39,798 bases of DNA, taken from contig CAZHSR010000001.1 of NCBI GenBank assembly GCA_964535155.1, forward strand, positions 13,896 to 53,693. Reading direction: 5' to 3'. The stretch comes from an uncultured Candidatus Saccharibacteria bacterium (GTDB lineage: Bacteria; Patescibacteriota; WWE3; UBA101185; UBA10185). Position 1 is the stretch's first letter. The number at the start of each line of letters is the position of its first letter. Shown here piece by piece: positions 2,810 to 38,424 of this stretch. A model generated the notes under the pieces. The model ran no database searches, was not told where the DNA came from, and was given only the letters and a program-made list of their open reading frames with translations. The position numbers and the translations under genes were made by a program.

Positions 2810-3202
2810 ATGAAAGAATCACCCCACATAGATATATTTATAGAAGATCCAGAAACCTCCCAATCAAAAATACATCTGAATATCGTTGTAAACGAGTTAG
2901 ACAAATGCTCCGATTTTTATAACAAAGTAAGTCTATCCATTACTGGAAATCCCTTATTAAGAGGCGTTTTTGAATATAAAAATGTAACAATTTCTCTCTC
3001 AGAAAATAGAACAAATAAAAAGGGAGATAAAATCTATTTAGGTATGAGATTGAGAAACCTAAAAGAAATAGCAAAAAAACTTAAAGAACACGACATTGAA
3101 CCCTTTAGAGAATACGAAAATCTAAAAGGAAGGGCAATAACAATAATTAAAGATCCCTGTGATAATTATATTGAGTTTTCAGAAAATTTAACCAAACAAT
3201 GA
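2810..3202 (+). CDS. small VOC-like protein (130 aa)
   Basis: C-terminal KDPCDNYIEFSE resembles the VOC-family DPDGNxIEF terminus. Otherwise weak. Confidence 0.45.
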   Translation: MKESPHIDIFIEDPETSQSKIHLNIVVNELDKCSDFYNKVSLSITGNPLLRGVFEYKNVTISLSENRTNKKGDKIYLGMRLRNLKEIAKKLKEHDIEPFREYENLKGRAITIIKDPCDNYIEFSENLTKQ

Positions 3203-3218
3203 GGAAACCAATTATTTA

Positions 3219-3749
3219 ATGCAAACAAATTTATATACAGAAGTAATCGAAGTATTAACCAGCACATTAGTGGAAACATTTTTTTCCTTTTTCCTAAATT
3301 TCTGGTATCTCTGGCTACCCATAATAAGCATAGCAACCTTCAAAATTTTTCTAGCAATCCATCGATTACATAAAATAAAAAAATCAGGTCTTTTTGAAAT
3401 AGTCAAAATGTATGGAACTGACTTTGAAATCTTCCTGAAGCAACTTTTTATTAAACTGGGATACAAAGTGGAAGTAACTGGAAGAATGGCAGATTATGGC
3501 GCGGATTTAACAATTGAAAAGGATAACATTAGAACTGCGGTTCAGGCCAAATGTTGGAGAAGTCCTGTTACTGTCAAGGCAATTCAAGAGGTAACCGCAG
3601 CTAAAGCTCATTACAATGCCACGGAAGCTATGGTAGTAACCAATAGCCGTTTTACTTCTAATGCGAGGGTTCTTGCAGAGGAAAATCACATACGGCTTGT
3701 GGATAGGGAGAAATTGGCGTCATTGATACTTCAAAGTAATAAGATATAA
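3219..3749 (+). CDS. membrane-anchored restriction endonuclease (Mrr_cat-like) domain protein
   Basis: N-terminal hydrophobic helices, then FEIFLKQLFIKLGYKVEVTGRMADYGADLTIEKDN..AVQAKCW...VVTNSRFTSNA...IRLVDREKL. This is the D-(D/E)xK layout of the Mrr catalytic domain. Confidence 0.75.
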   Translation: MQTNLYTEVIEVLTSTLVETFFSFFLNFWYLWLPIISIATFKIFLAIHRLHKIKKSGLFEIVKMYGTDFEIFLKQLFIKLGYKVEVTGRMADYGADLTIEKDNIRTAVQAKCWRSPVTVKAIQEVTAAKAHYNATEAMVVTNSRFTSNARVLAEENHIRLVDREKLASLILQSNKI

Positions 3750-4844: not shown

Positions 4845-5069
4845 TTATTTTCTGTCTATCTGATCTCTAATGTCAACTTTTTTTATGATGGTTTCTTTTG
4901 GTAAATAGTTGAGAAGGGCTTTTTCAATAAGGGCCGTTAAAGTTAAATTTTCAACTACTGCCTGTGCTCTGGCTTGTGTGGCAATGGATGGGTTAATAAA
5001 TATGGTTACTCTTTGTTTGGTATCACTTGACATATTACAAGTATTACATGTATTTGTAATACTTGTCAA
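4845..5069 (-). CDS. small ribbon-helix-helix-like protein (74 aa)
   Basis: RVTIFINPSIATQARAQAVVENLTLTALIEKALLNYL has a beta-strand then two-helix pattern like CopG/RHH. Weak. Confidence 0.4.
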   Translation of the reverse strand: MTSITNTCNTCNMSSDTKQRVTIFINPSIATQARAQAVVENLTLTALIEKALLNYLPKETIIKKVDIRDQIDRK

Positions 5070-31746: not shown

Positions 31747-32391
31747 ATGAACGACAAAACCACAAAAACAACCCCAACTAACCCACCAAAACCCAAGGCT
31801 AAAACAACCAAGAGCCTCCTTGAACCCCTTACCACAACCACCAAGACAGTTTTTACAACTCAAGACCTTAATAAAATATGGCAATATGAAAACTATAAAA
31901 GCCTGATTCAACGCATTTCATACCTTTCAAAAGCAGGGAAAATTCAAAAAATTAAGCGCGGAATCTATTCCTTCCCAAATCGTCCAATAAATGAGTTGGA
32001 GCTTGCAAATAAAATCAAAACCCCCTCATATATTTCCTTTGAGACAGTTCTCTATATAGAGGGGATAATTTTCCAGTGGGATAACCGAATTACTTTAGCA
32101 GCAAAAGATTCGCGTGAAATACAGATTCAAAATGACCCACTAGCACTTAAAATAGTATTTAGGAAAATTAAAGACGAGATTCTGCTTAATCCAACGGGGA
32201 TAATTCCAGAGAATAATTATTTTGTGGCTTCAAAAGAACGAGCAATGCTAGATATGCTTTATATAAGCCCAAATTTCACCTTTGATAATTTAAGAAGTAT
32301 TGATTTTGCCAAACTAAAAGAAATGGCTCAAATTTATAATAGAGCCTCAATTTTTAGGGCAATAGAAAGGCTGGAAAAATATGTTAGATAG
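31747..32391 (+). CDS. AbiEi-family type IV antitoxin (copy 1)
   Basis: wHTH-like region (LIQRISYLSKAGKIQKIKRGIYSF), then SYISFETVLYIEG and ASKERAMLDMLY, as in AbiEi. Overlaps the downstream toxin gene by 11 nt. Confidence 0.75.
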   Translation: MNDKTTKTTPTNPPKPKAKTTKSLLEPLTTTTKTVFTTQDLNKIWQYENYKSLIQRISYLSKAGKIQKIKRGIYSFPNRPINELELANKIKTPSYISFETVLYIEGIIFQWDNRITLAAKDSREIQIQNDPLALKIVFRKIKDEILLNPTGIIPENNYFVASKERAMLDMLYISPNFTFDNLRSIDFAKLKEMAQIYNRASIFRAIERLEKYVR

Positions 32392-33145
32392 ACTAAAACA
32401 TGAGACTACAATGCGAAACATCTTGGATGATATTTACAACGATAATTTTTTGTCAAATAAACTTGGCTTTAAAGGTGGAACCTGTGCATACTTTTTTTAT
32501 GAATTGCCCAGATTCTCTACCGATTTGGATTTTAACTTGATTTCTACAAGGGACTCAATCGATGAGAGTAAAGGCACAATTGAGGATGAAAGCTCTAAAA
32601 GTACGCTGGCAAATCAAGTCTTTGAAAAATTGGAAGAACTGCTAAAGAAACATGGCGAGGTTAGGGACAGACACATTAAGGCAAATACTATATTCTTTTA
32701 TGTTGTACATACGCCAAATAAAAGCGGTATAAAAATTGAAATTTCAACAAGAGAAATAGAAAAAATCAATGCATACGAATTGAAAGAATTTTATGGAACA
32801 TCTTTTTTAATTATGAAGCGAGCGGATTTATTTGCAAACAAGTTATTAGCTTTAACAATGCGTGTAAACCCTTCGGCTAGGGATTTGTATGATATAAATT
32901 TTTTCTTTTCAAAAAACTGGGATATAAATGAGAATGTGGTTAGTGAGGCGTCTGGAAAAGCTTTTTTGGAATATGTAGAGGCGTTGCCAAAGTTTATTGA
33001 AGAAACTTTTAATTCTGCAAATGTGCATTTGGGATTGGGGGAGCTGTTAAAAGGGCAATCGGAAAGGGATTTTGTTAAAAGAAAGTTAGTAGAAGATACT
33101 GTAAATAAAATTAGGTTTTTTGTGGATGCGCATAAGAGATTTTAG
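32381..33145 (+). CDS. AbiEii/AbiGii (DUF1814) nucleotidyltransferase toxin (copy 1)
   Basis: FKGGTCAYFFYELPRFSTDLDFN is the hallmark NTase motif. Also a later ARDLYDI motif. Confidence 0.85.
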   Translation: MLDRLKHETTMRNILDDIYNDNFLSNKLGFKGGTCAYFFYELPRFSTDLDFNLISTRDSIDESKGTIEDESSKSTLANQVFEKLEELLKKHGEVRDRHIKANTIFFYVVHTPNKSGIKIEISTREIEKINAYELKEFYGTSFLIMKRADLFANKLLALTMRVNPSARDLYDINFFFSKNWDINENVVSEASGKAFLEYVEALPKFIEETFNSANVHLGLGELLKGQSERDFVKRKLVEDTVNKIRFFVDAHKRF

Positions 33146-33323: not shown

Positions 33324-33394
33324 AACAAAAAAGCCTCTGTATAAACAGAGGCTTTCTTGCATCCAACACTGAAAATTCAGTGGGGCCTTGACAT
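33324..33394 (-). ncRNA. candidate small RNA B (paralogue of A)
   Basis: On the minus strand: TAAAAT (complement of 33401-33406), hairpin 33367-33382, and terminator 33331-33354 followed by a U-run. It shares the GGATG(G)CA(G/A)GAAAGC linker with unit A. Confidence 0.3.
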
Positions 33395-33458
33395 AAGATG
33401 ATTTTACACTAGATCCCAATATTTATCAAAAATAGTTGAAACTATCCGAATTTATAAT

Positions 33459-33505
33459 AATTTGTAGACCCAACTCTACGAATTTCGCTAAATTTGTAGA
33501 CCCAA
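33459..33505 (+). repeat. 15-bp direct repeat AATTTGTAGACCCAA x2 (33459-33473, 33491-33505), 32-bp period
   Basis: Read directly. Lies upstream of the DGR RT gene. Confidence 0.85.
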
Positions 33506-33656: not shown

Positions 33657-34838
33657 GTGTTCCAAACTTTGCTAAGCGCGTACAAACAATGTCAAAAGAA
33701 CAAAAGGCTAAAAACCTCTTCAGCTAAATTTGAAATAAACCTAGAAAAAGAGCTGATTTCCTTGGAAGCCGACCTAAAATCAAAAACATATAACCCGGGC
33801 AGGTTTTCCGTATTTGTAGTTACTGAGCCAAAAGTAAGAGAAATATTTGCCGCGGAGTTTAGAGACAGAGTTATTCATCACATTATTGTTAATCACATTC
33901 AGCCTGTCTTTGAGCCAAAATTTATTTATGACAGCTTTGCCAATCGAAAAAACAAAGGCACTCACTTAGCGGTTAAAAGGTTGCAAATTTTTGCAAGAAA
34001 AATTACAAAAAACGGCAATCAAAAGGCGTTTTATTTACAGGCAGATATAAAAAACTTCTTTCCTTCCATTAACCACAACATTTTGTTTAACTTAATAAAA
34101 AAACATATTCACAACAAAGAAATTCTAGACCTTACAAAATTAATAATTTTCCATGATTGCACACAAAATCCCATTAGAAAAGGACATCCAAGTTTATTTC
34201 AAAAAGTTCCGCCTCAAAAATCTTTGTTTTTTACACCAAAAGGGCAAGGCCTTCCAATAGGAAATTCAACCTCCCAATTTTTTGCAAATGTTTATTTAAA
34301 TGAGCTAGATCAGTATGTGAAGCATTCTTTAAAGTGCAAATTTTATGTACGATACGTGGATGACTTTGTCATTTTGGATATAAATAGAGAAAAACTGGAA
34401 GAGATTTTGCAAAAAATTAATGTGTTTTTACTGGAAAAATTGGCACTAGAGTTGCATCCAAATAAATGCAAAATAGAGGTGATTTCTAAGGGAATTGATG
34501 CCTTGGGATATGTTATTAAGCCAGATTATTTGATTGTTAGAAAAAGGGTAATCAAAACCTTAAAGAGAAAGTTGTGGGAGTTTAAGAGAATGGTAGGGGA
34601 AAACGAGGCGAGACGGGAAGGGACGAAGAAGGGAGAAAACGAGGTGGATTGGGAATTTATTGTATCCAGCATCAACTCCTATTATGCCCATTTTGGACAT
34701 GCAAAAAGCTATAAATTACGGAAAAACCTTTGGGAAAAACACTTTGGAATTTTAAAAGACTATCTAATTCCAATAAACGGATATAAATACTTTAAATTAA
34801 AGAAAACTAAGAGCCCCAACCAAGCTAAAAAAAGCTAG
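33657..34838 (+). CDS. DGR-type reverse transcriptase
   Basis: 393 aa, GTG start. Motifs: PKVREIFAAEFRDRVIHH, SFANRKNKGTHLA, LPIGNSTSQFFANVYLNELD (the DGR-typical IGxxxSQ) and the catalytic box YVRYVDDFVIL. No maturase or endonuclease domains. Confidence 0.92.
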   Translation: MFQTLLSAYKQCQKNKRLKTSSAKFEINLEKELISLEADLKSKTYNPGRFSVFVVTEPKVREIFAAEFRDRVIHHIIVNHIQPVFEPKFIYDSFANRKNKGTHLAVKRLQIFARKITKNGNQKAFYLQADIKNFFPSINHNILFNLIKKHIHNKEILDLTKLIIFHDCTQNPIRKGHPSLFQKVPPQKSLFFTPKGQGLPIGNSTSQFFANVYLNELDQYVKHSLKCKFYVRYVDDFVILDINREKLEEILQKINVFLLEKLALELHPNKCKIEVISKGIDALGYVIKPDYLIVRKRVIKTLKRKLWEFKRMVGENEARREGTKKGENEVDWEFIVSSINSYYAHFGHAKSYKLRKNLWEKHFGILKDYLIPINGYKYFKLKKTKSPNQAKKS

Positions 34839-34854
34839 AGTTGGAGCCCAAAGT

Positions 34855-34999
34855 TAAATACTTCCAGGGACGCAACACAACCCGAAACCCGATATTACTA
34901 TTTGCATTACTAGTGTTATTGTTATTGACATTGGAACAACTAGAGTTGCCTAAGATCCTTGCATTAGTTGTATTGTTGGCGGCGGAAGCCCAACTATAT
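34855..34999 (-). repeat. DGR template repeat (TR)
   Basis: About 145 bp homologous to 35817-35962. Its minus-strand frame is rich in AAC/AAT codons (WASAANNTTNARILGNSSCSNVNNNNTSNANSNIGFRVVLRP). Confidence 0.9.
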
Positions 35000-35360
35000 A
35001 GGCAACAAAACAAAAAAGCAAAGTGTCAGGACAAATAACACCCATGTTTGTTAGTCTCTTCACTTTTGCGGTTTAATAAACCCTTTAGAAACCAATCTCA
35101 TATTAACCAATAAACAGAGTATGGTTTCTTGCATAGATCCTCAAAGCTTTTTTAGTTACTCAATCCATATTTATCTGCAATCTTTGGCCTTAAGCCAATT
35201 TATATTGCAGGAAAGAGACCGAAGTATTTTTTGGCCAAGGTTTCTAACCTTGAAACAAAGCTTGCTGTTAGGCTGGCTTTGTTACACTTTTGAGCCGTTT
35301 AAGGGTCTTTTAAACTAGTTCAAAATTCTGGCCAGGGCGATGAGTGGGCAAATAGAAGGA

Positions 35361-35699
35361 CTAGGACGATTTTATCCAGCCTCCTAACATTTTACCCACC
35401 TCATCTACATATTTTGAAAGAACTTCATATTTTTTAACACCTATTATTTTTAAACCAAAACATAACCGAATGTAAATACGCATACGGTCTAAATGTGTAT
35501 TTGCTTTCTTTAAATGGGGCTTTTTGTTAATTTCAGAATTGGCAATAATTATACAGTCTAAAAATTCCAAACAGGCTGTCTGTAGGCTTTGTCCCAGGCT
35601 ATATCTATATTCTTTTGGAAATTTATGTATTTCTTTATATATTCTAAGAAGAAGATCATAAGATTTTTGAAAGATGGTAAGTTGTGTATATTGTGCCAT
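35361..35699 (-). CDS. avd: Avd accessory variability determinant (four-helix-bundle family)
   Basis: 112 aa. IFQKSYDLLLRIYKEIHKFPKEYRYSLGQSL...LDRMRIYIRLCF...VGKMLGGWIKS fits the Avd / 23S-rRNA-IVS four-helix-bundle pattern. It lies between the target gene and TR. Confidence 0.8.
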   Translation of the reverse strand: MAQYTQLTIFQKSYDLLLRIYKEIHKFPKEYRYSLGQSLQTACLEFLDCIIIANSEINKKPHLKKANTHLDRMRIYIRLCFGLKIIGVKKYEVLSKYVDEVGKMLGGWIKSS

Positions 35700-35712
35700 A
35701 AAAATTTTTTGC

Positions 35713-35800
35713 GTTCTTTGCTACGCAAAGAACTTGGTTCAAGCCTTTGGCTTGAAAACCTTTTGCTTTGCAAAAGGTTATGCAGCCACTACGTGGCTGC
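35713..35800. other. four tandem perfect stem-loops, each with a 3-nt loop (35713-35733, 35738-35756, 35757-35779, 35782-35800)
   Basis: Stems of 9, 8, 10 and 8 bp with no mismatches. Plus-strand loops are TAC, TTT, TTT, TAC. The array lies between the VR end and the avd start. Confidence 0.85.
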
Positions 35801-35816
35801 TCAAATGAGCAGAGTC

Positions 35817-35962
35817 TAAATACTTCTCAGGGACGCAACACAACCCGAAACCCGATAGTACTACCAGCACCACTAGCGCTATTGAGAAAGACAAGGGAAC
35901 AACTAGAGTAGCCTAAGATCCTTGCATAAGTAGTATTGTAGGCGGCGGAAGCCCAACTATAA
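35817..35962 (-). repeat. DGR variable repeat (VR) at the 3' end of the target gene
   Basis: With TR coordinate + 963 = VR coordinate, there are 18 mismatches. All fall at plus-strand T in TR, which is A on the coding strand. Confidence 0.9.
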
Positions 35963-36801
35963 TTAGTATCACCGTCGTTGCATGTCTTCCTGTTAGCATA
36001 AAATAACCCCCCGTAACAGGCCAAGGGATAGTCATTACTTGAGTGTTGCTCACAGGCATTTTGGAAATCATTACCTACACTCGTACTGGACGCGTAATAT
36101 GGCAAAGCAGACTTACTTCCTGTTGCCAAAGCCCATGTTGCTAAAGAGGCATTTACTGCAGCTAAATCAGCACCCAAACAGCCATTCCCAGTACATAAAT
36201 CTCTGGTGCCGTCTAAACAATCGGAAATTGCCAATGCAGAAATACTGCTATACCCAGCCGAACCATTATGAGAACTGGTTATGGTTACACTATTTACACT
36301 AGAAACCAACTTGTACCACTGACCAGCTGACGCTGCTATCATTCGGTCCTTGAGTGCGGGAACATCACTGGCGCAAGTGTAAGCCCCGGGGTTATCAACA
36401 TCATCTCCAACCCCTTTATTCCAGCTCACAGTGTCTGCCAAAGTCTTAGACCAGCAGGCACCTCTTCCGTTGGTTTCGTACCAATACCAACCAGAGATTG
36501 AGTTGCAGTTACATTCGGTTAAAGTGGACCAAGTAGCTTCTGATAATAAGACCTGACCATTACAAATTGTCATATCAACTTTGGAGGCAATTTGTTCTGG
36601 ATCGTTAAAGTCTTCCGTAACGGAAAGGGAAACGGCGCGGGCAACAAGGGTTAAAATGGAAATTGTGGCAATTAAAACGGTGGCTACTATTGTGCCAAGG
36701 ATTATTCGGGATTTTTTTGTGGCGGGGAGGGCACGGAGGGAAGTGGGCAAGGTGGTAAGGGGGATTTTGCTAAATATTTTTGTAAGTTTTTTTAAGGGCA
36801 T
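35827..36801 (-). CDS. DGR target (variable) protein: N-terminal TM anchor, Cys-rich ectodomain, C-terminal CLec-type variable region
   Basis: 324 aa. TM segment IILGTIVATVLIATISILTLV. The C-terminus WASAAYNTTYARILGYSSCSLVFLNSASGAGSTIGFRVVLRP aligns with the TR frame. Confidence 0.9.
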   Translation of the reverse strand: MPLKKLTKIFSKIPLTTLPTSLRALPATKKSRIILGTIVATVLIATISILTLVARAVSLSVTEDFNDPEQIASKVDMTICNGQVLLSEATWSTLTECNCNSISGWYWYETNGRGACWSKTLADTVSWNKGVGDDVDNPGAYTCASDVPALKDRMIAASAGQWYKLVSSVNSVTITSSHNGSAGYSSISALAISDCLDGTRDLCTGNGCLGADLAAVNASLATWALATGSKSALPYYASSTSVGNDFQNACEQHSSNDYPLACYGGLFYANRKTCNDGDTNYSWASAAYNTTYARILGYSSCSLVFLNSASGAGSTIGFRVVLRP

Positions 36802-36869
36802 GTTTCATTAAAATATACACTTCTGTACATTTTATTGCAACCTAAATAAAAACTGGTGTATCAAATAAG

Positions 36870-36905
36870 AGATAATTGACACAGAAGGTAATTATCTAGT
36901 ATAAT
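36870..36905 (+). promoter_or_regulatory. candidate promoter of abiEi-2 (TTGACA-18-TATAAT, near-leaderless) overlapped by inverted repeat AGATAATT-N12-AATTATCT
   Basis: -35 at 36876-36881 and -10 at 36900-36905, with the ATG at 36912 only 6 nt after the -10. Inverted-repeat arms at 36870-36877 and 36890-36897. Confidence 0.5.
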
Positions 36906-36911
36906 CTACAC

Positions 36912-37661
36912 ATGGAAGACATAAAAATTATTGAACTTGTCCTTATAAAAAAAGGCCGAATTGTAACAAATGCAGCATTAAGCAAATATCTAGGTACATA
37001 TATAGATGTAAACAAAAAAATTTCCTCGCTTATAAAAAAAGGATTTTTGGTGAAACTAAAAAAAGGGACTTATTACATTGCTAAATTAGGAAGTTTAAGC
37101 TACATCTCTATATCCAACTACCTAATAGCAAATATTATAGGGGAGAAGTCCTTTGTTTCTTTTGAAGCAGCCCTAAAATTCCATGGGCTATTTGACCAGG
37201 GGATTAGTAAATATAGGTCTATCTCATTAAAGCAATACTTAACCAAAAATTTGGAGGGAATAAGCTATGAATACATAAAAGTTAAGCAGAATCAGTATTT
37301 TGGGTTTAATCTTGAAAGAGTTGATGGGGGAAACGCGGAAATTGCTACAAAGGAAAGGGCACTATTGGATCTTCTTGAATATAAAAGGTCCATTAGTACT
37401 GTAAGTTTAGTTTTGGAAAAATTAAGCACATATAAATCGGAGATTAATTTTAGTCTGTTAAACGAATATGCGGAAAATTATTCGCAGACGACAATAAAAA
37501 TATTAGGTTTATTACTGGATATTTTAGAGATTGATAGCAAGGATTTGGAGGGGTTAATTAATAAAAAATCAACTTCTCGCATGCTAAAGGATTCCGATAA
37601 ATTCAGTAATAAATGGAGACTTTATTACAACTCTATATTGGAAAATCAAATTAATGATTGA
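36912..37661 (+). CDS. AbiEi-family type IV antitoxin (copy 2)
   Basis: ISSLIKKGFLVKLKKGTYYI wHTH region, SFVSFEAALKFHGL and ATKERALLDLLEY. Overlaps the toxin gene by 8 nt. Confidence 0.75.
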   Translation: MEDIKIIELVLIKKGRIVTNAALSKYLGTYIDVNKKISSLIKKGFLVKLKKGTYYIAKLGSLSYISISNYLIANIIGEKSFVSFEAALKFHGLFDQGISKYRSISLKQYLTKNLEGISYEYIKVKQNQYFGFNLERVDGGNAEIATKERALLDLLEYKRSISTVSLVLEKLSTYKSEINFSLLNEYAENYSQTTIKILGLLLDILEIDSKDLEGLINKKSTSRMLKDSDKFSNKWRLYYNSILENQIND

Positions 37662-38424
37662 TTTAATAACTAGAGAGCAATTGGAATACACCGCCAAATC
37701 GGTATTAAATTATCCCTTACATGATGCCGAAAAAGATTATTTTCTGACACAAGTCATGAAAGTGGTTTCAGAATCATCATTATCAAATGCCCTCATTTTT
37801 AAGGGGGGAACCTCTATATATCATTGTTATCTAGACCAATTAAGATTTTCTGAGGACTTGGATTTTACTGCAATTGATAAAGACATATGCATAGAGGAAA
37901 TTAGGGAGATTTTTGACAAATTGGCTATGTTTGAATTTAAGAAAGAGTATGAATCCACTGCTACAATAAAGATTGAAAGGTTAAAGTATTACGGTATTCT
38001 TGACACTCCAAATAGCATAAAGTTTGAGGTGGATAGAATGCAAAATGTGATATTACCCACAGTCCATAGGCAGTATAAAAATGTGTGGGATTTAGACTTT
38101 TCCGTAAATGTAATGGATCCTGTGGAGATATGTGCAGAAAAATTGCGGGCTTGTAATGACAGGTTTAGATATAGAGATTTTTATGATTTATATATGATGA
38201 TAACCAAGCTAAATATAAACATTAAAAACTCCATATCCCTGATACCCCAAAAGGAAATCAGAAAGCCCTTTTCCAAGGAAAACATTTTAAGAAATTTTGC
38301 TTTAGCATTAAATGAAATCTCAATGGAAGCTGATACGGTTACATATAAAGAAGTTCTGAATACTGAGATTTTGAAAAAATTCTTTGAAGAGTTGAATTTA
38401 TCTCCACTTCAACCTAATGTTTAA
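37654..38424 (+). CDS. AbiEii/AbiGii (DUF1814) nucleotidyltransferase toxin (copy 2)
   Basis: FKGGTSIYHCYLDQLRFSEDLDFT hallmark motif, plus a later YRDFYDLY motif. Confidence 0.85.
   Translation: MIDLITREQLEYTAKSVLNYPLHDAEKDYFLTQVMKVVSESSLSNALIFKGGTSIYHCYLDQLRFSEDLDFTAIDKDICIEEIREIFDKLAMFEFKKEYESTATIKIERLKYYGILDTPNSIKFEVDRMQNVILPTVHRQYKNVWDLDFSVNVMDPVEICAEKLRACNDRFRYRDFYDLYMMITKLNINIKNSISLIPQKEIRKPFSKENILRNFALALNEISMEADTVTYKEVLNTEILKKFFEELNLSPLQPNV

Follow-up and report, generated by a model that had tools for sequence, protein, structure and literature searches.

Why would a diversity-generating retroelement (DGR) carry four hairpins in a row downstream of its variable repeat (VR), where the usual model has a single one? 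This question is raised by a 39.8-kb stretch of DNA from an uncultured Candidatus Saccharibacteria bacterium, referred to here as the window (39,798 nt). In this window, an array of four hairpins occupies the 127-nt gap separating two co-directional genes, the DGR target gene and the accessory gene avd. On the minus strand, the cassette runs from the target gene with its VR, through the hairpins and avd, to the template repeat (TR). The original prediction had assigned the locus to a DGR and had placed the hairpins between VR and avd. Evidence from the reverse transcriptase (RT), avd and the TR/VR pair, given in the last section, bears out this assignment.

The prediction had also described four mismatch-free stem-loops at positions 35713-35800, with gaps of 4, 0 and 2 nt in plus-strand order, and every one of these details is correct in the sequence. 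Each loop is 3 nt long. On the plus strand, the loops read TAC (35713-35733), TTT (35738-35756), TTT (35757-35779) and TAC (35782-35800). Read on the minus strand, which is the sense strand of the target gene and avd, and in order of increasing distance from VR, the hairpins are the following:

35782-35800, minus strand: H-a, the first hairpin after VR; sense GCAGCCAC-GTA-GTGGCTGC; 8-bp stem with 6 of 8 pairs G-C (75% GC); c(GTA)g loop
35757-35779, minus strand: H-b; sense AACCTTTTGC-AAA-GCAAAAGGTT; 10-bp stem, 40% GC; c(AAA)g loop; followed only by TTTTC
35738-35756, minus strand: H-c; sense TTCAAGCC-AAA-GGCTTGAA; 8-bp stem, 50% GC; c(AAA)g loop; zero gap to H-b
35713-35733, minus strand: H-d; sense GTTCTTTGC-GTA-GCAAAGAAC; 9-bp stem, 44% GC; c(GTA)g loop; GCAAAAAATTTTT and the start codon (ATG) of avd come next

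The start of avd (35699) lies 13 nt past the last hairpin. All 35 base pairs of the array are Watson-Crick pairs, with neither a G-T pair nor a mismatch, and all four hairpins combine a C-G closing pair with a sense-type loop (GTA, AAA, AAA, GTA). When both strands were folded, as the prediction had proposed, the four hairpins constituted the minimum free energy structure as well as the centroid structure on each strand. The folding energy equals -50.8 kcal/mol (z = -6.0) for the minus strand as RNA and -35.4 kcal/mol (z = -7.3) for the plus strand as DNA, and none of 200 shuffles was as low in either case. Across the whole window, non-overlapping hairpins whose stem is perfect over 8 bp or more and whose loop spans 3 to 5 nt were counted, which yielded a total of seven, four of them inside the array. 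When the window was shuffled 500 times with its dinucleotide composition preserved, the maximum number of such hairpins per 100 nt was zero in 9 shuffles, one in 478 and two in 13, and at least three within 100 nt were observed in none of the 500. The hairpin cluster is real and far beyond chance.

The symmetric loop pattern pointed out in the prediction is likewise real, but it is not part of any larger dyad symmetry, a candidate that was rejected because the stems of the outer pair bear no sequence relation to those of the inner pair. H-b and H-d have a loop-proximal TTTGC/GCAAA in common. Tandem duplication of a two-hairpin unit was considered as well and rejected, as the two halves of 44 nt each share little but this motif in a by-eye alignment. 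An attenuator-like alternative, in which an extended H-b stem borrows 5 bp from H-a and H-c, is by a rough estimate far weaker than the four-hairpin fold. Finally, recoding of TGA (genetic code 25) would extend the target open reading frame (ORF) through the hairpins. This candidate was dismissed, since relatives carry TAG at this position and the ORFs are long and intact under translation table 11.

The first hairpin and the known DGR target site

A single hairpin or cruciform downstream of VR, which the prediction had named as a requirement for target recognition in the Bordetella phage DGR, is documented as such, and it is the structure that is needed rather than the stem sequence (PMC3240598). 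In phage BPP-1, cDNA is integrated at VR more efficiently with the structure, which does not occur beside TR, and homing is reduced by a longer distance between VR and the hairpin or by an altered loop size or sequence (PMC3240598). Published target hairpins have a GC-rich stem of 7 to 10 bp and a GRNA loop on the sense strand and are located 4 to 34 bp after VR (PMC3240598; PMC6602519). In addition, trinucleotide GRA loops have been described for nanoarchaeal DGRs (PMC4372165).

In the window, the 30 nt past the last variable site are the same in VR and TR, after which VR has one extra A, followed by 10 identical nucleotides (GAAGTATTTA). The extra A makes the TGA stop codon of VR (CCCTGAGAAG at 35829-35817 versus CCCTGGAAG at 34866-34855). 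When this one 1-nt indel at the stop codon is allowed, the TR/VR homology ends at 35817, and the predicted distance of 16 nt between the homology boundary and the nearest hairpin proves accurate. The segment between VR and the array is organized as follows:

35801-35829, minus strand: TGA stop codon (35829-35827), 10-nt TR/VR extension GAAGTATTTA (35826-35817) and 16-nt spacer GACTCTGCTCATTTGA

H-a thus begins 16 nt after the end of the TR/VR homology and 26 nt after the stop codon, and H-b, H-c and H-d begin at +38, +61 and +84 after the homology end, respectively. Within 80 nt after TR, there is no comparable inverted repeat, and no perfect hairpin is listed there. Among the related loci surveyed below (L numbers), the identical 1-nt VR/TR difference is found in L174, and the matching spot of L060 carries an indel of 1 nt. 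Since VR and TR have near-identical 3' ends in the window, L174 and L060, the initiation of mutagenic homing (IMH) element and IMH* appear barely distinguishable by sequence in this lineage.

Only H-a lies within the published distance of 4 to 34 bp, whereas the stem length of 7 to 10 bp holds for all four hairpins (8, 10, 8 and 9 bp, all perfect). The stem of H-a is 75% GC, compared to 40%, 50% and 44% for H-b, H-c and H-d and 37% for the genome. None of the four has a 4-nt GRNA loop, as all loops are 3 nt long, but GTA retains the G..A ends and the C-G closing pair. The loops fit the triloop variant of the clade, in which 3-nt G..A and AAA loops occur in related DGRs. Moreover, the c(GTA)g of H-a and H-d is a d(cGNAg) triloop, and the c(TAC)g of the opposite strand is not such a motif. 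Triloops of the d(cGNAg) type are exceptionally stable in DNA, with a contribution of about 2-3 kcal/mol from the C-G closing pair (PMC3201870). The absence of the element beside TR also corresponds to the known system. H-a agrees with the published description save for its loop length and is most probably the DGR target-site hairpin.

The closest known counterpart is the BPP-1 DGR (Guo et al. 2011, PMC3240598). Here too, an inverted repeat is located just 3' of VR/IMH and not beside TR, and its stem of about 8 bp carries a G...A sense loop closed by C-G; H-a matches it in position, stem length and GC content. However, the lone BPP-1 hairpin has a GAAA loop of 4 nt, whereas the window has four hairpins in tandem with 3-nt loops. 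Two of these loops are AAA, and three of the stems are only 40-50% GC at 38-84 nt from VR. The nanoarchaeal GRA hairpins (Paul et al. 2015, PMC4372165) share the 3-nt G..A loop right after VR and likewise belong to ultra-small uncultured prokaryotes. This type was also encountered in several of the archaeal relatives surveyed, twice as a tandem pair (L105 and L117). In contrast to the four intergenic hairpins of the window with their GTA and AAA loops, the nanoarchaeal hairpins lie within the target ORF and are single, or double at most in our survey. Group IIC introns, which are DGR-related retroelements, similarly recognize, in part of their target, a DNA stem-loop by structure and not by sequence (PMC3240598). 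The stem-loops that they use differ in belonging to true intrinsic terminators, complete with U-tracts, and in being single, and the window contains no intron.

Hairpins downstream of variable repeats in related DGRs

Relatives were sought with the RT in IMG/VR (59 loci; best identity, 49%) and in GTDB genomes (80 loci; best identity, 62%, Patescibacteria). In addition, avd was searched for among 5.8 billion proteins (best identity, 78%) and, by means of an avd profile, in JGI metagenomes (30 loci), complemented by nine contig look-ups. TR/VR pairs in the relatives were found via their adenine-specific mismatches. The resulting set, which includes the window, comprises 119 distinct VR-downstream regions of 150 nt each. 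Perfect stems of at least 7 bp with loops of 3 to 5 nt were distributed over these regions as follows:

0 hairpins: 76 of 119 regions
1 hairpin: 33 of 119 regions
2 hairpins: 9 of 119 regions
4 hairpins: 1 of 119 regions, which is this window

At least one hairpin is present in 43 of the 119 regions (36%), in agreement with the work of Wu et al., whose set of 372 DGRs had an inverted repeat in only 34% of cases (PMC5758913). The set of four, which the prediction had remarked is more than the model needs, is indeed unusual, with one region out of 119. The four-hairpin array was found in none of the RT or avd relatives collected from IMG/VR, GTDB, the protein searches and the JGI metagenomes. 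The compensatory changes that the prediction proposed to look for in homologous DGRs could not be demonstrated, as three of the four stems have no counterpart.

A typical relative has one hairpin approximately 20-45 nt past the aligned VR end, with a GC-rich stem of 7 to 11 bp, a C-G closing pair and a sense-strand loop of GATA, GTTA, GAA, GTA, GCA or AAA; first hairpins are located as far as about +113. The loops are strongly strand biased, with 39 of the sense type (G..A or AAA) versus 3 of the complementary type in the 118 related regions. A C-G pair closes 27 of 42 first hairpins, compared to 26% of all hairpins at the same loci. Both combinations of loop and closing pair found in the window recur among the relatives. 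The c(GTA)g type is also present in the DGR target hairpins of L013, L088 (twice) and L120, and the c(AAA)g type forms the lone VR-downstream hairpin of the Saccharibacteria and Dojkabacteria relatives L068, L077 and L083. In addition, the hairpin accompanies VR and not avd: it is missing where avd is not preceded by a VR (L141, L155 and L159-L161), and in the distant relatives L086 and L088 it is found at remote VRs without an adjoining avd.

Tandem hairpins were observed in two archaeal DGRs, one on a Woesearchaeota contig and one on a contig binned as Methanosarcinales. L105 has two adjacent triloop hairpins at +20 and +45 (spanning +20 to +67), namely, AGCTGAAT-AAA-ATTCAGCT and ATAAAAATGC-AAA-GCATTTTTAT. 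L117 has AGCGCC-AGA-GGCGCT followed by TGGCGC-GAA-GCGCCA, located at -1 to +33 after VR. Tandem target hairpins may thus be a small recurrent class in the DGRs of ultra-small prokaryotes. The element class and the archaeal triloops are already known; the fourfold tandem arrangement is new and was met once. The usual annotation rules for DGRs (a 4-nt GRNA loop at 4-34 bp from VR) overlook the triloop hairpins of the candidate phyla radiation (CPR) and DPANN. Other multi-hairpin clusters, located outside the DGRs at loci such as L111 and L135, were set aside as not comparable, being AT-rich gene-end hairpins on archaeal contigs.

Within the closest avd lineage, about 35 loci with 55-78% avd identity contain zero or one hairpin each. 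Their layout consists of the stop codon, an AT-rich stretch of approximately 30 nt that starts with the AGTAT motif (shared with TR), zero or one short hairpin or palindrome, a AAAATTTTT-like run and the avd ATG, with an intergenic length of 35-113 nt. The stems of the lone hairpins are unrelated across the sub-lineages (TTCTGC/GCAGAA, GCCTCCGC/GCGGAGGC, CCGGCTC/GAGCCGG and GGCCG/CGGCC). The closest relatives, L060, L140 and L143, have one 6-bp hairpin with a stem of only 50% GC, followed by plain AT-rich sequence, in a gap of about 105-113 nt; the 127 nt of the window are slightly above this. H-a is positioned like the hairpin of these relatives, after the motif TGCTCATTT common to the window and L060. 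H-d (TTCTTTGC-GTA-GCAAAGAA) resembles the L060 hairpin TTCTGC-GTAA-GCAGAA, including the A/T run on its 3' side (AAATTTT in L060). For H-b and H-c, no counterpart was found in the avd-lineage relatives.

Two side observations concern this lineage. In L060 (5927-5942) and L140 (192-207), an A-run precedes the lone hairpin on the sense strand. Read on the antisense strand, in the direction of the RT gene, this hairpin is a clean intrinsic terminator, with the stem followed by TTTTT(T), a feature absent from the hairpins of the window. It could also halt convergent transcription of the RT gene ahead of the target gene. In the CPR relative L169 (metagenome contig Ga0210057_1022611, 2620-3640), avd is cut off after approximately 44 codons by an insertion that carries a two-gene toxin-antitoxin-like cassette (ORFs 2999-3193 and 3200-3484). 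Both flanks of this insertion carry long perfect palindromes and a repeated unit, TTAGGAAG..CTTCCTAA ... GGTCATCGCAAGACCTTA. The insertion looks like a palindrome-bounded mobile cassette, and its sequences are unrelated to those of the window. Since the cassette is flanked by palindromes, palindromic insertions do occur at these loci.

Possible roles of the additional hairpins

The step in which the cDNA finds and replaces VR is the least understood step of mutagenic retrohoming, and the hairpin or cruciform on the VR side is its only known structural cue. Tentatively, we interpret the array as a multiplied version of this target-site element. This interpretation is based on its position, the shared design of the hairpins, their strand-specific loops and Watson-Crick stems, the absence of the element beside TR and the double hairpins found elsewhere. 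H-a would be the canonical element; H-b, H-c and H-d follow its design as additional hairpins, and we infer a role for them in homing. The lack of G-T pairs fits this interpretation, because a structure that forms on both DNA strands requires Watson-Crick pairing. In negatively supercoiled or transiently single-stranded DNA, the sense strand would fold into compact hairpins beside the IMH-like end of VR. These hairpins would supplement the small sequence difference between the recipient VR and the donor TR, which amounts to one base over 40 nt, and four adjoining hairpins would raise the odds of at least one of them extruding. The cruciform array put forward in the prediction receives some support, in that all four hairpins have the C-G closing pair and the G..A or AAA sense loop of the clade, but three of its stems lack conservation.

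A bolder and decidedly unlikely version holds that the four hairpins jointly serve as a landing pad on the sense strand, marking the recipient repeat by structure and not by sequence. They would then stall replication or provide a structure-specific entry point for the cDNA, and multiplication of the hairpins would tune the homing frequency. If true, the locus would amount to a dose series, provided by nature, of the most poorly understood cis-element of DGRs. A natural four-hairpin element, in a lineage with nearly matching 3' ends of VR and TR, would lend itself to a series of constructs (zero to four hairpins, GTA versus AAA loops) suited to telling apart action by dose, position and strand.

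Several points weigh against a multiplied target-site element. The three extra hairpins are without counterpart in any relative, so that there is neither conservation nor covariation to invoke. The closest loci (avd, 78% identity; RT, 62% identity) manage with one 6-bp hairpin and some with none, and even one hairpin is not universal (34% of 372 DGRs in Wu et al., 43 of 119 regions here). The stems of H-b, H-c and H-d are hardly GC-rich at 40-50% GC, though the genome is at 37%, and they lie 38-84 nt past the end of the TR/VR homology, beyond the published 4-34 bp. Given the effects of distance and loop in BPP-1 (PMC3240598), the distal hairpins with AAA loops may be inert, which would make them a mere curiosity of one uncultured genome. 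The loop orientation of the three extra hairpins is weak evidence when taken alone, with a chance of 1 in 8 if random. Furthermore, a role at the RNA level and one at the DNA level cannot be separated by sequence, the region being transcribed too. The array is a singleton, and judged by the condition for refutation that the prediction itself had set, a lack of conservation among related DGRs, the case for a special array function is not made.

An intercistronic element acting in the target-avd-TR transcript is a rather doubtful alternative. As a partial terminator or pause site, a block to 3' exonucleases that protects the mRNA of the target, or a 5' stabilizer or processing site of the avd-TR (DGR) RNA, it would uncouple expression of the target from that of the avd-TR part. 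The array does fill the 127-nt gap between two genes of the same direction, and its RNA fold is strong (-50.8 kcal/mol, z = -6.0), and the lack of any predicted sigma-70-like promoter between target and avd makes read-through transcription plausible. Moreover, the closest relatives have a plain AT-rich stretch after their lone hairpin instead, this hairpin is terminator-like in L060 and L140, with an uninterrupted run of T on the antisense strand in the direction of the RT gene, and UUUUC directly follows H-b in the window. However, an intrinsic terminator with a G+C-rich stem and a U-tract was called for none of the four hairpins on either strand in a scan of 34700-37000, and the tails directly 3' of H-a, H-b, H-c and H-d read AUAACC, UUUUCA, CCAAGU and GCAAAA. 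Like intrinsic terminators, the hairpins are stable stem-loops right after a stop codon; unlike them, the four stems lack a U-tract directly on the 3' side, on either strand. The lone overlapping terminator-like call (35729-35708, minus strand) is a weak alternative stem of 7 pairs between part of the H-d 5' arm and the 3' GCAAA, and the 2.3-kb scan gave three calls versus 2.3 expected from shuffles. The likely terminators of the window are single hairpins, at 33330-33355 with flanking A and T runs and at 5037-5066 just past a stop codon. In addition, RNase III needs longer stems than these (8-10 bp), GUA and AAA triloops do not count among the loop motifs that are stable in RNA, G-U pairs are absent, and Rfam 15 gave only sub-threshold chance matches (18-23 bits versus gathering scores of 56-80). 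Terminator features after IMH are found in a minority of DGRs only (Wu et al., PMC5758913), and the array is not conserved in relatives. The attenuation site suggested in the prediction thus finds no backing in a U-tract terminator or promoter consensus.

It is unlikely, too, that a single hairpin is functional and the other three are neutral recent by-products, which could be quasi-palindromes that template switching made perfect while the DNA was replicated, or what is left of a small palindromic insertion. Such an origin would account for an array that is a singleton absent from all relatives, for a gap length near the 105-113 nt of these relatives, as expected from turnover in a non-essential spacer, and for the loop-proximal motif shared by H-b and H-d; the insertion in L169 shows that palindrome-rich sequence does enter DGR loci of the lineage. 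It fits poorly with four distinct perfect palindromes within 88 bp (0/500 shuffles), and the common C-G closing pairs and sense-type loops would be unexpected under neutral processes. No second copy of any hairpin was found in the window, a scan of IMG/VR with H-a and H-b gave no match for H-a and one match in a coding region for H-b, and target-site duplications were not found at the flanks. Perfect stems at 37% GC suggest either maintenance or a very recent origin. A protein-binding platform, with operators for dimeric DNA-binding proteins such as regulators of avd and TR or for the recruitment of Avd or RT, is very improbable, although perfect inverted repeats with a 3-bp center directly upstream of avd have typical operator geometry. 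Because each of the four palindromes has its own sequence, a single protein could not recognize them all on that basis, which makes this suggestion of the prediction unattractive; the cassette contains no regulator gene, and the array is not conserved in relatives. Least credible of all is an assembly artifact. The source is an assembled metagenome contig, and the avd cluster is represented by one contig only, but the palindromes are 19-23 nt long, differ from each other and lie within a continuous, properly ordered cassette with intact flanking ORFs, both flanks of which align with relatives.

A number of other candidates were tried and rejected. The array resembles repetitive extragenic palindromes (REP) and bacterial interspersed mosaic elements (BIME) in that multiple short palindromes are crowded in an intergenic region past the end of a gene. 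In these elements, however, one sequence family occurs many times per genome, whereas the window has four unrelated sequences without extra copies in 39.8 kb. A dispersed palindromic repeat, be it REP/BIME or a miniature inverted-repeat transposable element, was discarded, as each hairpin matches itself alone in the window when up to 3 mismatches are allowed. A mobile element was rejected for the lack of further copies in the window and of a target-site duplication. Snap-back synthesis by the RT as the origin of the palindromes was rejected by reasoning, because its geometry would be wrong: the 3' end of the cDNA corresponds to the other side of VR.

The DGR cassette and its genomic setting

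The remaining features of the cassette are the following:

35827-36801, minus strand: target gene; 324 aa with an N-terminal hydrophobic segment, Cys-rich, C-terminal ...GFRVVLRP
35828-35961, minus strand: VR; 134 nt, at the 3' end of the target gene
35361-35699, minus strand: avd accessory gene; 112 aa; Pfam PF22296 bAvd, E = 9.3e-23, exceeding the curated cut-off
34999-35360, minus strand: avd-TR spacer; 362 nt, carrying two motifs conserved across CPR DGRs
34865-34998, minus strand: TR; 134 nt
33657-34838, plus strand: DGR RT; 393 aa; RVT_1, E = 2e-24; YVDD and IGNSTSQ motifs

VR and TR are direct repeats on the minus strand, and all 18 mismatches between them are at TR adenines (minus strand). 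The homologues of the RT are DGR RTs with adjoining TR/VR pairs. The locus accordingly combines a DGR-type RT, an adenine-specific TR/VR pair in which VR ends an ORF, and avd. Judging from the adenine-only TR/VR differences and the RT motifs, the DGR looks intact and appears active. The target gene product had no Pfam match.

TR, avd and the target gene face a convergent RT gene, whose stop codon is only 26 nt away from the TR 3' end. The TR RNA and the RT mRNA must arise from separate, converging transcripts. The convergent layout is also present in the CPR relatives L061, L067, L068, L077, L083, L142, L173, L174, L179 and L180; in the majority of the other relatives, avd, TR and RT are all on the same strand. 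Convergent or mixed-strand cassettes are already known among CPR DGRs.

The avd-TR spacer contains the motifs ATACTTCGGTCTCTTTCC (35227-35210) and AAGTGAAGAGAC (35065-35054), both on the minus strand, which are conserved in seven CPR DGRs. Within the spacer, GGTCTCTT can pair with AAGAGACT just 5' of TR, and a second helix can form between ATACTTC and GAAGTAT just 3' of TR (34864-34858, minus strand), so that both helices would bracket TR. Across the seven CPR DGRs, 94% of the alignment cells of the bracketing helices are paired, compared to 42-53% when the partners are slid, and a compensatory change from U-A to C-G is seen in L173 and L142. The helices are a candidate structured DGR-RNA element of convergent-RT DGRs, in which little room is left for a spacer 3' of TR. 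An insertion of approximately 45 nt, CAAACATGGGTGTTATTTGTCCTGACACTTTGCTTTTTTGTTTTGT (about 35050-35006, minus strand), lies between AAGTGAAGAGAC and TR in the window and not in the six other aligned CPR DGRs.

The window as a whole is a cellular, CPR-like chromosome fragment with transporter, glycosyltransferase, Dus and ABC-type genes and without tRNA genes, and its average GC content is 36.7% over 39.8 kb. The nearest RT relatives are from Patescibacteria/CPR genomes (62% and 58% identity), and a search of the phage collection gave no DNA match to the window. The GC skew tracks gene orientation and is uninformative on the direction of replication in so short a stretch. On both sides of the DGR cassette, at 31747-33145 and 36912-38424, there are AbiEi-like/AbiEii toxin-antitoxin gene pairs, with AbiEii matches at E = 4e-20 and 4e-30. 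In addition, a 32-nt tandem direct repeat (AACTATCCGAATTTATAATAATTTGTAGACCC / AACTCTACGAATTTCGCTAAATTTGTAGACCC, 78% identical) at 33440-33503 lies inside a 510-nt non-coding stretch 5' of the RT gene, downstream of the hairpin at 33330-33355, which resembles a bidirectional terminator.

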